Virus record (IMG/VR): IMGVR_UViG_3300030376_005739
Coordinates: 1 to 35,827 of that record
Source of the DNA: a virus
Lineage: Duplodnaviria; Caudoviricetes
Length of the DNA stretch: 35,827 nucleotides
Direction: 5' to 3' (one strand)
Shown: piece after piece, positions 6,978 through 35,510 of the stretch
Layout: each line of letters starts with the position of its first letter
Numbering within the stretch: position 1 is the first letter of the stretch
Notes under the pieces: generated by a model
Seen by the model: the letters and a program-made list of their open reading frames with translations, nothing else
Databases searched by the model: none
Told to the model about the DNA's origin: nothing
Made by a program: the position numbers and the translations under genes

Positions 6978-7006
6978 AGCACCGGGTCAACCGGTGCTTT
7001 TCTTTT
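6978..7006 (+). terminator. Intrinsic terminator for the early (+) arm
   Basis: AGCACCGG-GTCAA-CCGGTGCT stem-loop followed by TTTCTTTT. Confidence 0.75.
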
Positions 7007-7268
7007 AGCACTTCCACTTGCGCAAAGCCAAAGCCTTGCGAGTAGGGCGACCCTTTGAATCTTTCATCGGACCTTTGACGCCACTCATGCGAGCGCAAAA
7101 GCTTTTCTTTCGAGCCTTATCCTTTTTAGTTTTAGGATTAGGCGCAGGCGGGCGCAGCTTGCCACCGGTTTCACGGTTGTAACTGGCTCTGCCCTTGGCG
7201 TTGAGCCCACCACGTTTGTTTTTGCCGGCTTTGCGTTGCCAAGCAGGCGTTTTGTACCGCTTGCTCAT
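7005..7268 (-). CDS. Basic phage protein, DUF6321-like
   Basis: AWQRKAGKN..GGLNAKGRASY...RKKSFCARM...LRKWKC pattern recalled from marine phage proteins. Confidence 0.8.
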   Translation of the reverse strand: MSKRYKTPAWQRKAGKNKRGGLNAKGRASYNRETGGKLRPPAPNPKTKKDKARKKSFCARMSGVKGPMKDSKGRPTRKALALRKWKC

Positions 7269-7435
7269 CGTCGTCTGGATGTGTTTCGAGCAGTCTTTTT
7301 AGAGTTACGAAACGCTCGCTCGGTTGGCGCACCCTTTGATCCAGGCTTACGCATTCGCTCGCCAGATCCGGCTGCAATGCGTTTGCGCTTGGCTCTTATG
7401 TTAGCATAAAGCCCTGGCTTTTTAGACCGTGCCAT
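7265..7435 (-). CDS. Small basic phage protein (56 aa; not in the ORF track)
   Basis: Hand translation MARSKKPGLYANIRAKRKRIAAGSGERMRKPGSKGAPTERAFRNSKKTARNTSRRR. Coupled at both ends (TGATG, ATGA). Confidence 0.85.
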   Translation of the reverse strand: MARSKKPGLYANIRAKRKRIAAGSGERMRKPGSKGAPTERAFRNSKKTARNTSRRR

Positions 7436-7503
7436 CACTTACCCTTTTTCTTTTTGCCGTAACCTTTGTTCGGTTTTGGGCGACTATATCCACCTCTACG
7501 CAT
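7435..7503 (-). CDS. 22-aa Lys/Arg/Gly-rich peptide (not in the ORF track)
   Basis: MRRGGYSRPKPNKGYGKKKKGK. TAATG overlap upstream, TGATG overlap downstream, GGAGGT-like RBS upstream. Confidence 0.65.
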   Translation of the reverse strand: MRRGGYSRPKPNKGYGKKKKGK

Positions 7504-7724
7504 TACCACCTCCATTTCATTCCTACAGTTCCTTGCCAATCGGCGGCATTTCCCCACTGAGCTCCGGCTGTAAGCGAGGCGGTGAGGTCGAAATCTCTTC
7601 CGATCTTATGTCTAGCATCAAGACCAACATCCCACCGATCAGTATTCCCGCCAAGAGACAGGTCAATCCCCCCAGAATCACCACTGCGCAAAACAAGCGG
7701 TGCTACTTGTCGGAGGGTTCGTCC
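7503..7724 (-). CDS. Amphipathic beta-strand domain; probable -1 frameshift extension of the holin-like gene
   Basis: The only candidate start is TTG 7691, with no RBS. The frame stays open back through the slippery site at 7730-7724. Ends GTVGMKWRW; the stop is coupled to the next ATG. Confidence 0.6.
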   Translation of the reverse strand, partial: GRTLRQVAPLVLRSGDSGGIDLSLGGNTDRWDVGLDARHKIGRDFDLTASLTAGAQWGNAADWQGTVGMKWRW

Positions 7725-7933
7725 AAAGGGGACGCTGCCGCAGCCTCCACGGCTGCCCGCTTCTGCTTCGCTACGTCTTCCATGCTGATGCCTAAGACAC
7801 CGCCTAAAGCGCCGAGCACTGATGCAACAACCGCTTCAGTAGGAAGATTAGGAAAGAAGTGCGCAAGCACAACTGGAAGTAACGCCGCCAAAAGGCTGAG
7901 CCAGAGTTTACGACTTTTGATTTTTGAACCCAT
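7703..7933 (-). CDS. Holin-like two-TM membrane protein
   Basis: Basic N-terminus KIKSRKLW, two hydrophobic segments and a charged tail. Confidence 0.75.
   Translation of the reverse strand: MGSKIKSRKLWLSLLAALLPVVLAHFFPNLPTEAVVASVLGALGGVLGISMEDVAKQKRAAVEAAAASPLDEPSDK
7724..7730 (-). promoter_or_regulatory. Candidate -1 ribosomal frameshift site C CCT TTG
   Basis: X XXY YYZ heptamer correctly phased in the holin frame (codons TCC CCT TTG). Confidence 0.55.
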
Positions 7934-7936
7934 TTT

Positions 7937-8341
7937 TTAGTCCTCGAAATAAATAACTGTGAACGTGTCGCCAGGAGCGCCTTTGACCAAGATGCTGTTC
8001 AGCGTGCCTTCAGGGTTTTGCATTTTGCTGACTGCAAACTCAAAGGTAGCGCCACCCGTCAGCGTGATGCCGTGATTAGCATGAACCTGCGGAGCAACCC
8101 CTGAAACGTTGTGCTTGTTTTGGATCGTCAGGTTTCCAGTGCCTTGATTGCAGATCATCACATAACCCGTGCGCAAGGTCAGATCAGGATCGCCAACCCC
8201 ACCATTTGCGATGGTGTCACCAGACGACAGATCGATAGTAGTTGCAGCGCCGGCGCCTGCTGAAAACACAATCTGATACGCCATAGTTCCGGCTGACCAA
8301 ACAGGTACGTTGCGCCGTTGGGCGCTGTTGAAAGCAACCAT
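7937..8341 (-). CDS. Beta-rich virion/structural hypothetical protein
   Basis: G/A/T-rich 134 aa; TAATG coupling within the late operon. Confidence 0.7.
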   Translation of the reverse strand: MVAFNSAQRRNVPVWSAGTMAYQIVFSAGAGAATTIDLSSGDTIANGGVGDPDLTLRTGYVMICNQGTGNLTIQNKHNVSGVAPQVHANHGITLTGGATFEFAVSKMQNPEGTLNSILVKGAPGDTFTVIYFED

Positions 8342-9574: not shown

Positions 9575-9961
9575 TCAGCCTTCCCACCGAGCTGGCCCAT
9601 TAGGGCGCATGTCGTAATGCACGAACGTGTTGTAGTTCCCTATACCACCATTTGGGATTTTTCCAGAGGCTGCCAACTCGTACACTACTGACTTCAGGCG
9701 CACTAGATCATCGGGGTTGCCGCTCGAAGGTGCTAAGTCAGCAGCACGGGCTTCAACATGTTGCGATTTGGACACGCCGCCAATGCGCTTATTGTACGCA
9801 GGATCACGGTATCCGCTGTTGACTCGGATCGGTTTGCCAAAGGTGCTGCGGATAACCTGAAGCGTCCACGCCAAATGCCGCAAGCGATCGGGGTAAGGGC
9901 AGTGCGCTCCGCTGTTACAGCTTAGTTCGTTTTCGCTAAAGTTTGGCGGGTAGTTGCTCAT
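9575..9961 (-). CDS. Peptidase M15A-family endolysin
   Basis: NFSENELSC, VNSGYR, SQH....AAD and FVHYD zinc-peptidase motifs. Confidence 0.92.
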   Translation of the reverse strand: MSNYPPNFSENELSCNSGAHCPYPDRLRHLAWTLQVIRSTFGKPIRVNSGYRDPAYNKRIGGVSKSQHVEARAADLAPSSGNPDDLVRLKSVVYELAASGKIPNGGIGNYNTFVHYDMRPNGPARWEG

Positions 9962-19205: not shown

Positions 19206-20800
19206 TACTGTTTCAACCCCATTTTGCCAATAATGTAGACGTTGAAGCCTGCATTACTAAGAATGAAATCCGTTGCTAGGCCGGTGTCCCATGTAGCACC
19301 TGTGCCTTTTGTATAAGTCAAACGAACCTCAATGTAATTTTCTAAACCACCTGTTGCTGGAGCAGCCTCTGCTAAAGAAGCGCCAACGCTACTTGCAATG
19401 TTTGCTCTGGCTACCGTACCATCGTAGGTTAGTTGGCGACCAAAATAAACTGGTCTTCCCTGAGTAACGTAGCCTTTACCCGCAACTCCGCCTGCTGCCG
19501 AGTAAACAAGCGGGATTGCCCAAAGACGATTTTGCAACAAGTTCCCTGTTGAGCCCGTCAGCAACGTAGACCCATGTGCAACCTGTTGATAAGTCGGACC
19601 AGGCACACGCACCCCTCGGTACAAACCAACTCCGATTTCAATGCGGCGGTTGCTAAGTGCTATAGCGCCAGGGCTTTTGCGTATGTAATCATTGATACCA
19701 GCAGCCTCAACCAACACATGATGAATCGTGCCGGGGTAGGAAATAGGAATAAGCGCACGATCCCATAAGGTGTTACCGCCTGCGTTAGGATAGGCAACTT
19801 GCCACTTAGCTACGTTGTCACCTTTGATAATGCCATCGTTGCCTAGCTTCATTAGATTTACACACCAGCAGAAATAACTGCTGTCTTCTAGGATCTGCTC
19901 TTTGCGATCGGTAGCAAAAGCTACGTCTGCCTGATACCGCCCAGCTCTGCCGCCAACTAACTTGTTGCGAAACTTGGTGTCTAAACTTTCGATTTGAGTC
20001 TGCACGCCTGTAACAGCAACATCGGCCTGTATAATGGTGTCCGCAACAGGAGCCGTTATTGCTACAGTGTCGTTGTCTTTGCTGTATAAAGCGGTAGCCG
20101 GTGCGTTCTGAGCGTCTACTGGGGTGCCACCATTGAGTGCTGCACCCAATACAGCAGCCGTATCACGCTGCACAACTGGATGAGAAAAGTTCGCTCGGAT
20201 GAGCACCGACATCAATGGCGCACTGGTACTGTCAATGTGCCATTCATATATAGAAAACCTATCCATAGACACGCTAAGATCACGCAGGATCGTAGGGTTT
20301 CTAGTGTTGAAACCGCCAACGATTTCTTCGCCGGTAATAACAACCTCTGCCATAAGAATCTTTTCAGGAGGCGGGCTAGATGTGCCAGGGTTGTTTGTTA
20401 GCTTGTACAGATACAAACTAACGCCGTTCATATCTCCCGCAACTGGCAAACCTGTAGCAGATCCAAGCATCTTGCTTTGGTTCATCAGGTCGAAACTAAA
20501 GCTAATAGAATCAAGCGTAACACTTGCAGTGTTTTCGTCGCTTACGAGTTTATCATTCCACTCATCTTGCAATGGCGGCAAAGTAAAATGCAATGACTCG
20601 CCCGAACTCGTACCGATCGCTGCTCCAGCAGTTTGCGCATAAAACCAACTAATACTGAATGGTGATTCAGCTTGGTTGCGTTGGTCCTTTGTAATGTTGC
20701 CACTTAGTTGCGTTGCAACTGACGAAAGATTGCCAGCAACATGTGATGGTTCAATCGCAACGCCAAGTGGCAACTTTTTGTCGTCTGTAATCTTACTCAC
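19205..20800 (-). CDS. Tail/virion structural protein
   Basis: Start moved to GTG 20800 (MSKITDDKK), overlapping the upstream stop; beta-rich composition. Confidence 0.7.
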   Translation of the reverse strand: MSKITDDKKLPLGVAIEPSHVAGNLSSVATQLSGNITKDQRNQAESPFSISWFYAQTAGAAIGTSSGESLHFTLPPLQDEWNDKLVSDENTASVTLDSISFSFDLMNQSKMLGSATGLPVAGDMNGVSLYLYKLTNNPGTSSPPPEKILMAEVVITGEEIVGGFNTRNPTILRDLSVSMDRFSIYEWHIDSTSAPLMSVLIRANFSHPVVQRDTAAVLGAALNGGTPVDAQNAPATALYSKDNDTVAITAPVADTIIQADVAVTGVQTQIESLDTKFRNKLVGGRAGRYQADVAFATDRKEQILEDSSYFCWCVNLMKLGNDGIIKGDNVAKWQVAYPNAGGNTLWDRALIPISYPGTIHHVLVEAAGINDYIRKSPGAIALSNRRIEIGVGLYRGVRVPGPTYQQVAHGSTLLTGSTGNLLQNRLWAIPLVYSAAGGVAGKGYVTQGRPVYFGRQLTYDGTVARANIASSVGASLAEAAPATGGLENYIEVRLTYTKGTGATWDTGLATDFILSNAGFNVYIIGKMGLKQ

Positions 20801-21632
20801 GCAACTGTTCCCTGTATACAATAACGAAGGTAGGTTGACCGGGGTGCATCGTGTTCGAGCCGCCGTCTGATTCCCACGACTTATTGCCCGCTGATGCTGC
20901 CGTGTCAGGACGAGCAAACGCCAAACGGAAACGCACACGAGCGAACTGATGGATTGGTAGGTTCAGATCTTTGCGCTCAATAACATAAGATGGCTCAACT
21001 GCTGTACCATCTTTCAGTTTAGTTGGAGGGGGGGGCACCATATCAACCGTAGGAGCAACTGCGTTGTTCAAGCCTTTTGCGTGCCATATTGTAGGATCAA
21101 ACTGTCGGTAATGAATCTCTTTAGAGTTCATTGTGCGATCTTCTGGAGCGTAAATGTTATCAGTATCAATCAGGATCTGTAACAACGAAGCCTCAGCAAA
21201 AGTTGACGCTGATGGACCAGTTAGTTTGATTGGCCACTTTTCCCAACTATCAATGTGTACAGCAACGCTATCAATAATCACTGGACGATCAAACAACGTG
21301 CTAACAGTCCACATTCCACCGTCTACTGTTGGGTATGTTCCAACGTTTGTTTCGCTGGCAACAATGCCTTTAGCTCGGAATATCGGGTTTCCTGAAGCGT
21401 CGGCTAGATTGTAGTTCAGCCAAGGACTGCTTGTGTCGATTGGCGATCCCGCTACTACTTGCTGCGGGTATGCACCTAGAATCATAAACTGAGGGGCACG
21501 GGGCTTTGCAACGGCCTCAATCGGTAACTCATTGTTATACTGAACAATATCACTGACAGCTTTAGCAACCCTTGAACCATCAATGGTTGATCCATCACTA
21601 AACTGTTCCGTTGTAATCTTACGAGTAGACAT
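20793..21632 (-). CDS. Tail/virion structural protein
   Basis: 279 aa, coupled; N-terminus resembles that of the downstream gene. Confidence 0.7.
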   Translation of the reverse strand: MSTRKITTEQFSDGSTIDGSRVAKAVSDIVQYNNELPIEAVAKPRAPQFMILGAYPQQVVAGSPIDTSSPWLNYNLADASGNPIFRAKGIVASETNVGTYPTVDGGMWTVSTLFDRPVIIDSVAVHIDSWEKWPIKLTGPSASTFAEASLLQILIDTDNIYAPEDRTMNSKEIHYRQFDPTIWHAKGLNNAVAPTVDMVPPPPTKLKDGTAVEPSYVIERKDLNLPIHQFARVRFRLAFARPDTAASAGNKSWESDGGSNTMHPGQPTFVIVYREQLRE

Positions 21633-31910: not shown

Positions 31911-32392
31911 ACAAGCGGCAGAACGTTATCCAAGGCTGCTTCGTTGAGATAAATAACGTTGACCGATAAGGATCCAGCCGTTGCGTCGGCTAACGCATGA
32001 CCAGCATCAGGCGTAAACGTTACCGTAATCGAGCGAGCGGAATCGCTGACATCGCAAGCCGGTCCTACCAGGCGATCGCCGGGGGTGCTGGGCACAGCAA
32101 GGATTCCGGTCGTTGCACCAGTAAACACGTCTTGGTCTTTGTACCAACCATCAGCATCGGTATCTGCCGTTGATGACCAACCCAAATCTGCGGTGCAGGA
32201 CGCAAGTCCGCCGCCACTAAACGCAGTGTCCAGCGAGATCCAGCGTTGCAGAACAACAGCTCTAGCCGGAATCACTTGCTCAAGCGTATAAACTTGTGCA
32301 GCTCCGTTGACTGAGGCTTGCAGAATATCAACGCCAACAGTTTGAGAAATGCAGCTTGTGGTGGGGTTCATCCCTGATCTTGCGGTGCTCAT
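31907..32392 (-). CDS. Beta-rich structural protein (capsid decoration/spike-like), putative
   Basis: IPARAVVL...DTAFSGG...ADLG...ITVTF...TAGSLSVNVIY jelly-roll-like pattern. Confidence 0.6.
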   Translation of the reverse strand: MSTARSGMNPTTSCISQTVGVDILQASVNGAAQVYTLEQVIPARAVVLQRWISLDTAFSGGGLASCTADLGWSSTADTDADGWYKDQDVFTGATTGILAVPSTPGDRLVGPACDVSDSARSITVTFTPDAGHALADATAGSLSVNVIYLNEAALDNVLPLV

Positions 32393-32622
32393 TTTTGCTC
32401 CAATGCAGCAATGCGCTGAGTGTCACGATCTGTTCGTTTGTACAGAATCTTGATGTCAGCAGTATTTCTTAAGACTTCGGTGCGCAATACCGGCACGACA
32501 CTGCGCGTCACTTTAGTTGCTTCGTCTACGTCTTTGATCAGCCTACGCACCCACCACATGGTGATGCCGCCGATACCAGCCAGGATAAGCTGCCCAACGT
32601 TGATTGTAAGTTGCAGATCCAT
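32389..32622 (-). CDS. Small single-TM membrane protein
   Basis: Hydrophobic GQLILAGIGGITMWWV followed by a charged helix; coupled at both ends. Confidence 0.75.
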   Translation of the reverse strand: MDLQLTINVGQLILAGIGGITMWWVRRLIKDVDEATKVTRSVVPVLRTEVLRNTADIKILYKRTDRDTQRIAALEQK

Positions 32623-32972
32623 CAGACTTCTTTCCCTAACGCTGCGCTGATTTTGGCATAGTGCGAGCGCATCTCACCAAGCCCCTCTTTTAAAAGAGCC
32701 TCTACATCAGTGATTTCTTTTTCGATAGCGTCTAATCGCTTCGTCCACTCCAGTCGCTCTTCGTCGTACTTTCGCACAACAGCATCATAACGGTCCCGCA
32801 CTTCGGCTTCCCGCTTGTTGCACTCTTCTGCTTGTTCTCTAAGCTGGACTTGGAAGTTGTCTGTTTGCACTTCCATGCGTTTGGTCATCCGCACATACAT
32901 CCAAAAGATAGCGCCGGAAGCGAGGCCAAGAGCCCCAAAGTCCGCAAGCGCCTCTAGGATCTGCGGGTCCAT
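32622..32972 (-). CDS. Single-TM coiled-coil protein (BhlA/UviB holin-like)
   Basis: DFGALGLASGAIFWMYV, then NKREAEVRDRY coiled coil. Confidence 0.6.
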   Translation of the reverse strand: MDPQILEALADFGALGLASGAIFWMYVRMTKRMEVQTDNFQVQLREQAEECNKREAEVRDRYDAVVRKYDEERLEWTKRLDAIEKEITDVEALLKEGLGEMRSHYAKISAALGKEV

Positions 32973-33985: not shown

Positions 33986-34769
33986 AGAACCTCCACGCCG
34001 CAGCTAACACAGCATAGGGGTCGTGAAAAACCCTGAGCGTGACCTAAAAAAAAGAAGCAGCTAAACCTATAGGAAAACCCAGGTTTTTTTGGACCCTTGA
34101 CAGCAGCTTTTTCCCTCAGGTATTACCTCCGGTGTAAGACAAAGATTCCACTGAGGTATGAGCAGAATAGCCACCCAGTGTTGAAGAACCCACCCCCCAA
34201 AAGCAGCAGACTCTTCCCTGAAAGAAGATGAACTGCTTTTGAAGAGGGGAATACCCAAGAGCTAAAGACGCTCCAGTGCCTTGACCGGGGACAGCAACAG
34301 CAGATCCAAACCCGAAAGTTTCTGAGTTGCACCGGATTGTGTGGGTGATCTTGTATAGGACCACGGGGGTATGCACAGCGATCGGGGGTCGCCTTGCCTG
34401 AGCAGCTTTCGAGCGCCGCATCACGCCTAAGTGCCTGATATTGCAACACCCCTGAGCACCTTGAGCACCCCTGATAGGGCCACAGCCCGCCACAGTAGCC
34501 GCCCCTAGCCGTTTCAGCCGCTCCAAAGGGGGTTGAGCACCCCTTGAGGTGCCCCCCTGCTAGGGTGCCCGCCTCAGGGGGTAGGAGGTGCCCCCGTGGG
34601 GGGTGCTAGTGGCTCCCGCTGAGCCCGTTGGAGCCCACGGGCATAAGTCCCCCCCGTCACCGCTCAGCACCCTCACACCCTCTACAGGGATTTCCCGCCC
34701 CCTTCCCTGTCGGCTGAGCCCCTCACGTACGCGAGGCAATCGGCGCCAACTCAGCACGGGGTGATTTGC

Positions 34770-34855
34770 TCAGTTTCGTCACGAGCTTGCTCCAACTCCG
34801 ATTCAGTTTCGCTACGAGCTTGCTCCAAACGCGAGCCGAATCGGGCTCAGTTTCG
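34770..34855. repeat. Direct repeats with 33-bp period
   Basis: tcagtttcg(tc/ct)acgagcttgctccaa at 34770-34795 and 34803-34828; partial tcagtttcg at 34847-34855. Confidence 0.9.
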
Positions 34856-34972
34856 AGGCTGATTTTCGCCCCGGTTGCGCCCTGGTAGCCGACCCTCTGA
34901 AAAGCCCATAACCACGGGGTTTTGAGTTGCAGTGCATACGCACGGATCCGCGCGTGCATGCGTAAGCGCACA

Positions 34973-35019
34973 CGCAGCGCCGCGCAGCCCCGCGCATTAT
35001 GCGCAGCGACGCGCAGCCC
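34973..35019. repeat. 18-bp direct repeat pair around a palindrome
   Basis: cgcagcg(c/a)cgcgcagccc at 34973 and 35002; GCGCAT-T-ATGCGC at 34992-35004. Confidence 0.85.
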
Positions 35020-35249
35020 TGGGCGCCGCTGCATGCGGACGTTTCAAAGGCGGGCGTGTTCCTTTAGCGCCCTGTTTACGGGGTTTTACCGCGGCCAGGG
35101 TGGTCTAAAATAGTTCTGCTGCGTTTTCCTACACTTAGCCTTTTTGGCGCCCTGCTACCGTCGCTTTTTTCTAGGTGCTGAAACTCCGGACCCTTAGGGA
35201 AGCGGGGCGCCCCCCCTCTAACCCTTTTCCGGGCGCTAGGAGACACCCC

Positions 35250-35486
35250 ATGAACAAGGCAGCCATGAACATGAACTTCCACAAGGCGAACAAGCAAATA
35301 ACCGAGGCTATCGAGGCGCTCAATATTGCCCGTGGGCTCACGCAAGCCGCTCAGCTTATCGACGGCGACAACAAAGAGGCGCTACAGACCGCAGCGGACA
35401 ACCTCGAAAATGCAACTCGCAATCTTTACGCCGCCGCCTCGCTTGCCGGCTCACTCTCTTGCGCCGTCGAACTCAAACTAAACTAA
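35250..35486 (+). CDS. Early hypothetical helical protein
   Basis: ATG 35250 after AGGAGACAC; 78 aa, Ala-rich. Confidence 0.75.
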   Translation: MNKAAMNMNFHKANKQITEAIEALNIARGLTQAAQLIDGDNKEALQTAADNLENATRNLYAAASLAGSLSCAVELKLN

Positions 35487-35510
35487 CCCCCACCCCCTAG
35501 GAGACACCCA

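Follow-up and report, generated by a model that had tools for sequence, protein, structure and literature searches.

How does a tailed phage make a membrane protein whose reading frame has no proper start codon, and what might such a protein do? The question is raised by a compact locus in the window analyzed here, which is the entire record of a virus (IMGVR_UViG_3300030376_005739; 35,827 bases, completeness 88%). Terminase, portal, capsid, and internal-virion genes, recognized by PHROGs profile matches, all lie on the minus strand. Near the end of this late operon, 1.6 kb downstream of an endolysin, a small holin-like gene (H) overlaps a second frame (B), which encloses a third (C) (Table 1). 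An initial annotation, made from the letters of the window, had proposed that a -1 frameshift fuses H to B and that the product might be a membrane-bridging, spanin-like protein or a pore.

Table 1. Features of the H/B/C locus and of two genes discussed with it (positions in the window)
Feature	Position	Strand	Description
ORF H	7703..7933	-	76 aa, ends TAG; holin-like
Slippery heptamer C CCT TTG	7724..7730	-	phased (H reads TCC CCT TTG)
ORF B (-1 frame)	7503..7730	-	linker of ~18 aa, then four antiparallel amphipathic strands; terminal Trp
ORF C	7523..7696	-	57 aa, nested in B; single TM helix and polar Pro-rich tail
Internal SD-like GGAGG	7744..7748	-	13 nt 5' of heptamer; likely -1 stimulator
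Possible 3' hairpin, CCCUCC/GGGGGG-closed	7668..7717	-	not significant, not conserved family-wide
Peptidase M15 endolysin	9575..9961	-	phrog_894 E 9.5e-29; PF08291 E 8e-20; same late operon
116-aa protein	32622..32972	-	N-terminal hydrophobic helix and coiled coil

What was claimed for the junction in the window can be read there directly. The X XXY YYZ heptamer is in phase near the end of H (7730-7724), the -1 frame is open from 7835 through the TAA at 7503, the sole ATG, GTG, or TTG ahead of strand 1 of B is a TTG at 7691 with no Shine-Dalgarno (SD) sequence, the stop of B is coupled through TAATG to a 22-aa basic ORF, and the fusion would comprise 69 + 74 = 143 aa. Phased XXXYYY heptamers occur, however, at 25 of the 8,982 codons counted over 32 ORFs on the minus strand of the window, a chance of about 4% per 15 codons, so that a single site is weak evidence. 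The family is another matter: the same chance rate cannot explain what is seen at homologous junctions.

Viral and metagenomic sequences gave 87 distinct homologous junctions, 83 of them complete, once a spurious locus (L028), a locus holding H only (L062), five truncated loci, and duplicates had been excluded. The conservation named in the initial annotation as its test is present, the heptamer, the -1 overlap, and the absent start being kept together. A phased heptamer lies within the last 15 codons of H at 83/83 complete junctions, a span picked after the first alignments and a set in which many loci are closely related; off-phase controls give 0/83 and 2/83, and the four partial junctions, which stand outside the 83, have it in 4/4. 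An ATG precedes strand 1 of B in 3/83 loci, and no ATG, GTG, or TTG at all is found there in 62/83. Nine spellings of the heptamer occur: GGGAAAG (30 loci), AAAAAAG (21), CCCTTTG (11), GGGAAAA (8), GGGAAAC (7), AAACCCC (3), and, at one locus each, AAACCCT, CCCTTTA, and TTTGGGA. On a tree of the 71 distinct B proteins, which has few columns and many open forks, the heptamer has switched class no fewer than 11 times (the possible minimum is 4), and every change leads to another valid heptamer encoding a different dipeptide. Because the dipeptide shifts with the class, protein constraint cannot account for this pattern. The arrangement is also kept across three divergent types of H N-terminus. 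Judged from this comparative record, a -1 frameshift at the H heptamer is very likely. The RNA-labelled run has coverage confined to 7923-8071, outside the junction.

Two ways of doing without a frameshift need to be weighed against this record. B could be a separate small gene, translated by near-cognate reinitiation after the H stop with the heptamer incidental, and some features would suit that idea: TAATG coupling is common in this genome, an ATG overlaps the H stop in three of the 83 loci, and gene callers annotate many stand-alone forms of 70 aa in the distant family. It is nevertheless very improbable in the face of the 62 loci that offer no start codon, a heptamer that persists through all the class changes and in the three ATG loci too, and a B that, taken alone, has no signal peptide. 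That an assembly or sequencing error split an in-frame H-B gene is less probable still, to the point of being negligible. It could appeal to two proteins, P0006 (91 aa) and P0021 (106 aa), in which helix 1 of H is fused in frame to B, but both are singletons, on contigs of 550 and 830 bases, that lack helix 2 and are probably assembly deletions. The same -1 offset recurs in 35/35 junctions, the heptamers are phased for -1 throughout, and the contigs of four runs carry no indels (no listed piece bridging the site under the 31-letter rule); conservation across many assemblies refutes the artefact.

In one small clade (L097, L099, and L181) the H stop forms TGATG, which supplies an in-frame B ATG beside an SD-like sequence, and the heptamer is kept. 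B might also be made alone there.

Stimulators are a further question. Attention had gone to structures downstream of the heptamer, and the GGAGG at 7748-7744 was overlooked. This motif stands 13 nt upstream of the heptamer in 33/83 loci, the window included, and 16 nt upstream in 32/83, 65/83 in total; at spacings of 7 or 10 nt GAGG only is found (12 loci), and six loci have no SD-like site. The Glu codon within the site is GAG in 78/83 loci as against 82/191 for the other Glu codons of H, and GGAGG is used in 0/19 matching [VLA]EA trigrams in eight other genes of the window. SD-like stimulators of -1 shifts have an optimum 9-14 nt upstream (PMC5009743), which puts about half of the sites, the 32 of 65 at 16 nt, slightly too far away. 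From its placement and codon usage, GGAGG is likely to act as a 5' SD-like stimulator of the -1 shift.

The proposed downstream stimulators fared less well. The stems described in the initial annotation exist in the window, but the 74-nt fold has a z-score of only -1.15, and 27/200 shuffles are as good; the pseudoknot does not hold up, with both stems fully paired in just 4/29 loci of the same geometry, and an SD-like stimulator 5' of the heptamer is the better fit. Of the CCCTTTG loci 10/11 keep the ACAAG/CTTGT stem whole, and of the GGGAAAG loci 0/18 do; across the family the mean z of 3' segments is -0.4 (71 segments, 10/71 below -2). A family-wide hairpin or pseudoknot was rejected on these fold scores and on stem conservation. 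Only the AAACCCC clade and some members of the GGGAAAC clade have strong 3' hairpins. The AAACCCC clade (L038, L039, and L061), which has no full GGAGG, has the strongest (z -3.5 to -4.2), and location of the strongest hairpins in clades without a full GGAGG suggests that the two kinds of stimulator substitute for each other. Several GGGAAAC loci (L024-L027 and L157) likewise have strong hairpins just 3' of the heptamer and no full GGAGG.

The same DNA appears to carry still another gene. ORF C, missed in the initial annotation, is read in the +1 frame of B, which is the frame of H continued beyond its stop. In 68/80 distinct loci it runs on directly from the H stop for 40 codons or more without a further stop, and in the same 68 its best 19-residue hydropathy exceeds that of synonymous recodings of B (p < 0.05); stop-free length alone does so in 43/80. 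In the first 32 codons of B, T fills third positions at 0.53 where 0.33 is expected, and in the remainder at 0.13 where 0.26 is expected, a pattern characteristic of a TM helix with a polar tail behind it. In one column T is kept in 68/69 loci where the B residue varies among Leu, Ala, and Val. The remaining 12/80 loci have a second stop followed by an ATG-started C, so that a C with a TM helix is found in 80/80.

Start codons at or before the C helix are ATG in 28 loci and GTG or TTG in 49, with CTG only in 3. For the window the candidates are TTG 7696 and GTG 7684/7681, or else readthrough of TAG-C. As a general route to C, stop readthrough is ruled out for the 12/80 loci in which the second stop precedes the ATG; in the clade of the window C may still be reached in this way. 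C has neither a lipobox nor a coiled coil. These codon-level patterns make it probable that C is translated.

Structure prediction bears on what the shift would add to H. The four-strand beta domain first read from the letters reappears in the monomer model of B as four antiparallel strands (pLDDT 82), at residues 19-28, 32-43, 47-58, and 64-73, which match those originally proposed. Strand faces alternate, and B is conserved up to its last residue, so the outer-membrane-type C-terminus that had been suggested recurs family-wide (Gx[KE]xRW in 83/83). The trimeric, YadA-type design finds support from modeling only: three copies of B alone, run at this single ring size, score 0.52 against 0.19 for the best control, on a scale whose mark is reached by 20/30 solved pairs and 1/23 single chains and is rough for three copies. 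Contact agreement between runs is at least 89% and partner pLDDT at least 77. In the predicted ring beta1 closes on beta4, residues 21-29 of one copy pairing with 65-74 of its neighbor, and the linker makes contacts between copies over residues 7-16 (13 with 13). Resemblance to anchors of known structure may account for the passing score. On these models, B probably forms an oligomeric membrane barrel.

Searches for relatives of this fold gave leads rather than assignments. No significant Pfam or PHROGs match was obtained for H, B, or C in profile searches, nor a PDB sequence match for B at E <= 10; the YadA-anchor profile matched none of 34 B-family members at E <= 1, and Foldseek against the PDB returned nothing for B at E <= 0.001. 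Fold matches of B to the Hia, AtaA, and YadA anchors are weak, those to several phage YadA-like anchors having E values of 2.7e-3 to 2.5e-2. The best VIA matches are gasdermin pores (Z 7.2, rmsd 1.9, 59 aligned), and Hia follows with Z 5.7 and rmsd 3.5 over a contiguous 57 aligned, all VIA rows being under Z 8. A language-model search with a homologue led to PF24653, Phage_OMP (0.94, 140 shared features), a lead only, to which one homologue has a faint HMM match (E 0.06) over the last 50 positions of the model; PF24653 itself matches nothing in this genome at E <= 10. A representative-library search returned five B-family proteins together with four unrelated repeat proteins.

H is less well defined. 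Its model has helices at 3-26, 32-46, and 51-67 at low confidence (pLDDT 62), two of them marginally hydrophobic (KD 1.99 and 1.75) and the other polar, and in size and makeup it is as expected of holins, which are small and have 1-3 TM helices along with a charged tail. H itself matches no holin-family profile, while the holin family phrog_9987 has weak matches to homologue L024 (E 0.017) and to the distant L062 (E 0.008). On these weak hits only, H may be a holin.

As to a role in lysis, the neighborhood gives a mixed picture. A wall hydrolase is found within the fetched flank in 48/82 loci and in 22/30 of those whose upstream flank reaches 2.5 kb or more. The distant family runs from a TM/coiled-coil gene through H/B/C to an endolysin, which starts 4-109 nt after B in 11/12 loci. 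At 16/82 loci the cassette adjoins genes for capsid or portal and no hydrolase is seen nearby, the whole H/B/C unit having been relocated (L001, L007, L010, L017, L021, L059, L060, and others). In the clade of L057 (463-1050) and L149 (1-567) a different enzyme takes the place of the M15 peptidase upstream of the cassette; it is presumably amidase-like, to judge by a motif. The TM/coiled-coil gene directly upstream of H in the distant family is itself a possible i-spanin-like partner or single-TM holin.

Missing from the window is a classical Rz/Rz1 pair, as had been noted: no lipobox o-spanin is found on the coding strands of the 88%-complete genome, and a six-frame lipobox scan of the window gives one candidate only, antisense inside a large gene. 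H and B have no lipobox. Given that completeness, an ordinary spanin could be missing from the record.

Taken together, H, the 143-aa H-B fusion, and C can be envisioned as a lysis cassette in which a lipoprotein-free substitute for the spanin disrupts the outer membrane, a reading of the sequence that we would put a little short of even. The conserved slip site would yield three membrane products, H, the H-B fusion, and nested C. A minority of ribosomes would slip -1, presumably aided by 16S pairing at GGAGG, and slippage would set a low ratio of H-B to H. Helix 1 would tether H-B in the inner membrane, helix 2 would be passed or released to the periplasm, and the C-terminal strands would be folded by BAM in the outer membrane, forming a trimer of 12 strands. 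Once the M15 endolysin had removed the wall, the bridge might draw the membranes together or open the outer one, with C as an inner-membrane partner or timing regulator. More tentatively, and at clearly longer reach, the locus may represent a third class of spanin, in which some 430 triple-coding bases specify a holin, a trimeric fusogen with a BAM-folded barrel, and a nested inner-membrane partner. The fusogen would be the minority product set by frameshifting, its outer-membrane anchor a beta-barrel and not a lipid, and the tethered autotransporter-like barrel would draw the inner membrane onto the outer after loss of the wall. If true, this would explain how some phages without a recognizable spanin lyse Gram-negative cells.

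Topology is the main obstacle, and the caution already voiced on this point was well placed. The charges of H (4.0 K/R at the N-terminus, 0 K/R in the loop, 4.1 K/R and 3.1 D/E after helix 2) fit an N-in/C-in hairpin, which would leave B in the cytoplasm and counts against a spanin substitute. Helix 2 has a mean KD of 1.79 (0.72 in the distant family) and is 46% G/A/S; both H helices are marginal on the biological hydrophobicity scale, and on the same scale the C helix, the most hydrophobic of the locus, inserts well in the family of the window. Helix 1 has an invariant Pro and, in 62/69 loci, a loose signal-peptidase-like pattern counted without a control. So weak and G/A/S-rich a helix 2 makes its passage or release to the periplasm plausible. 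Two further points weigh against the spanin-substitute reading. Only about 38 residues separate helix 2 from strand 1, which is short for the periplasm, and were the linker to run through the lumen, as it does in YadA, the N-terminal part would exit on the far side; a tethered N-terminus would then be either caught midway as a bridge or drawn toward the outer membrane. Searches for a host found no relative of B or H in GTDB genomes or in 50,697 phage records, and that the host has an outer membrane is itself an assumption of this reading.

Two other roles accept the frameshift. H-B might stay N-in/C-in, with B either a gasdermin-like beta-pore formed in the inner membrane from the cytoplasmic side or a domain that reaches the periplasm only via the holin lesion; B would then enlarge or time the hole for the endolysin, and C would be the holin or an antiholin. 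The positive-inside charges of H, gasdermin and RCD-1 pores at the top of the VIA rows (Z 6.6-7.2), lumen-facing residues that include conserved D, R, and K, and the hydrophobicity of the C helix in the family of the window would all suit such a pore. It is unlikely, though, when the invariant G-x-x-x-R-W falls exactly at the C-terminus, a terminal motif of the type that is a hallmark of outer-membrane proteins, when the trimer model closes beta1 on beta4, and when the gasdermin matches are not contiguous in the target and stay under Z 8.

Rather unlikely also is a role apart from lysis, with H-B a minor YadA-like or phage-OMP-like outer-membrane protein for receptor masking, superinfection exclusion, or anchoring of virion assembly, and H not a holin. 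The 16/82 loci among head genes would fit, as would the weak evidence for a holin, the PF24653 lead to a cyanophage OMP-like family, and the fact that phages do carry YadA-like anchors. Linkage to wall hydrolases, with direct adjacency in 11/12 distant loci, speaks against it, as do the late-operon position and the lack of a passenger domain; the failure to find a longer in-frame form, with no natural H-B fusion in a scored set of 7,994 candidates (141-2000 aa), adds weakly to these. The spanin-like role is accordingly ranked ahead of both, without reaching an even chance itself.

Known systems offer partial parallels. In the text available from PMC5009743, PMC3556154, and PMC3091744, the phage frameshifts described serve tail chaperones and capsid or tail extensions, and the word "holin" occurs 0 times in that of PMC5009743 on frameshifting. 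Lambda G/GT, P2 E/E+E', and E. coli dnaX resemble this locus in carrying a phased X XXY YYZ late in the first ORF and in gaining a C-terminal extension; GGGAAAC is also the slip site of phage Colossus, and a 5' SD-like stimulator is common to this locus, dnaX, and IS elements (PMC5009743, PMC3091744, and PMC3556154). Unlike the tail-chaperone cases, the gene that shifts here encodes a small membrane protein and belongs to a late operon of podovirus-like type, and the extension is a membrane beta module containing a nested third ORF.

Spanins are defined by an outer-membrane lipoprotein, with Rz1 embedded in Rz (PMC6139136). Likeness to lambda Rz/Rz1 lies in a membrane gene nested in an alternative frame of another, in linkage to an endolysin, and, in the clade of the window, in a C made of a TM helix and a Pro-rich tail. 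In contrast, there is no lipobox or lipoprotein here and a beta-barrel would serve as anchor in the outer membrane; frameshifting in the holin-like gene would supply the outer component, and C is short, without coiled coil. In T1 gp11 an N-terminal lipid is the anchor in the outer membrane, the strands are periplasmic, and a TM helix stands at the C-terminus (PMC6139136); as with H-B, a single beta-rich chain of four or more strands would bridge both membranes. Polarity is reversed in H-B, which has its helices at the N-terminus and would be anchored by the strands themselves. With no lipoprotein, the locus is not a member of the spanins, though it may work like one.

For the barrel, the closest design is that of the trimeric autotransporter anchors (YadA, Hia, AtaA; PF03895). 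The resemblance extends to four C-terminal amphipathic strands with a terminal aromatic residue, a predicted trimer, beta1-beta4 closure, and central linker contacts. It differs in that B has no sequence match and no head or stalk passenger, and in the N-terminal hydrophobic hairpin, the charged lumen residues, and its production by frameshift. PF24653 is likewise a membrane beta module of marine phages, alike at the level of features and of a faint HMM similarity, but its model spans 122 positions as against about 57 residues for the strands of B.

Among the matches listed in the literature on holins, spanins, and frameshifting, no description of this system was found. A survey of phages reports no spanin in 91/677 genomes (PMC6139136). 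The cassette is a small, testable candidate for how such phages breach the outer membrane, invisible to gene callers because B lacks a start and C is nested. Whatever its role, the locus adds a membrane gene to the programmed frameshifts of tailed phages, shows a slip site maintained through repeated turnover and paired with an SD-like stimulator, and presents a barrel-forming module of roughly 57 residues in DNA that doubles as code for a TM helix.

The virus itself has been seen in marine metagenomes, and no cultured relative was found for it. Its terminase is at most about 27% identical to those of known phages, and its capsid protein had no match in the relative search. Some 1.5 kb upstream of the late operon (34000-35500) is without convincing genes. 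Adjoining the terminase are two coupled small proteins with an N-terminal hydrophobic helix and a coiled coil (32389-32622 and 32622-32972, minus strand), the second of which is the 116-aa protein of Table 1. In 6 loci homologues of this second protein lie 160-861 nt downstream of B, and the two may be i-spanin-like partners or single-TM holins. After B, the late operon ends in three coupled, very basic ORFs of 22, 57, and 87 aa (7005-7502, minus strand; DUF6321, phrog_16028), and several relatives have similar basic ORFs there. Elsewhere, a 577-aa ORF overlaps a 279-aa ORF by about 145 nt (20793-20938, minus strand); the longer of the two probably begins at a downstream ATG instead, one that is coupled to the TAA at 20793.
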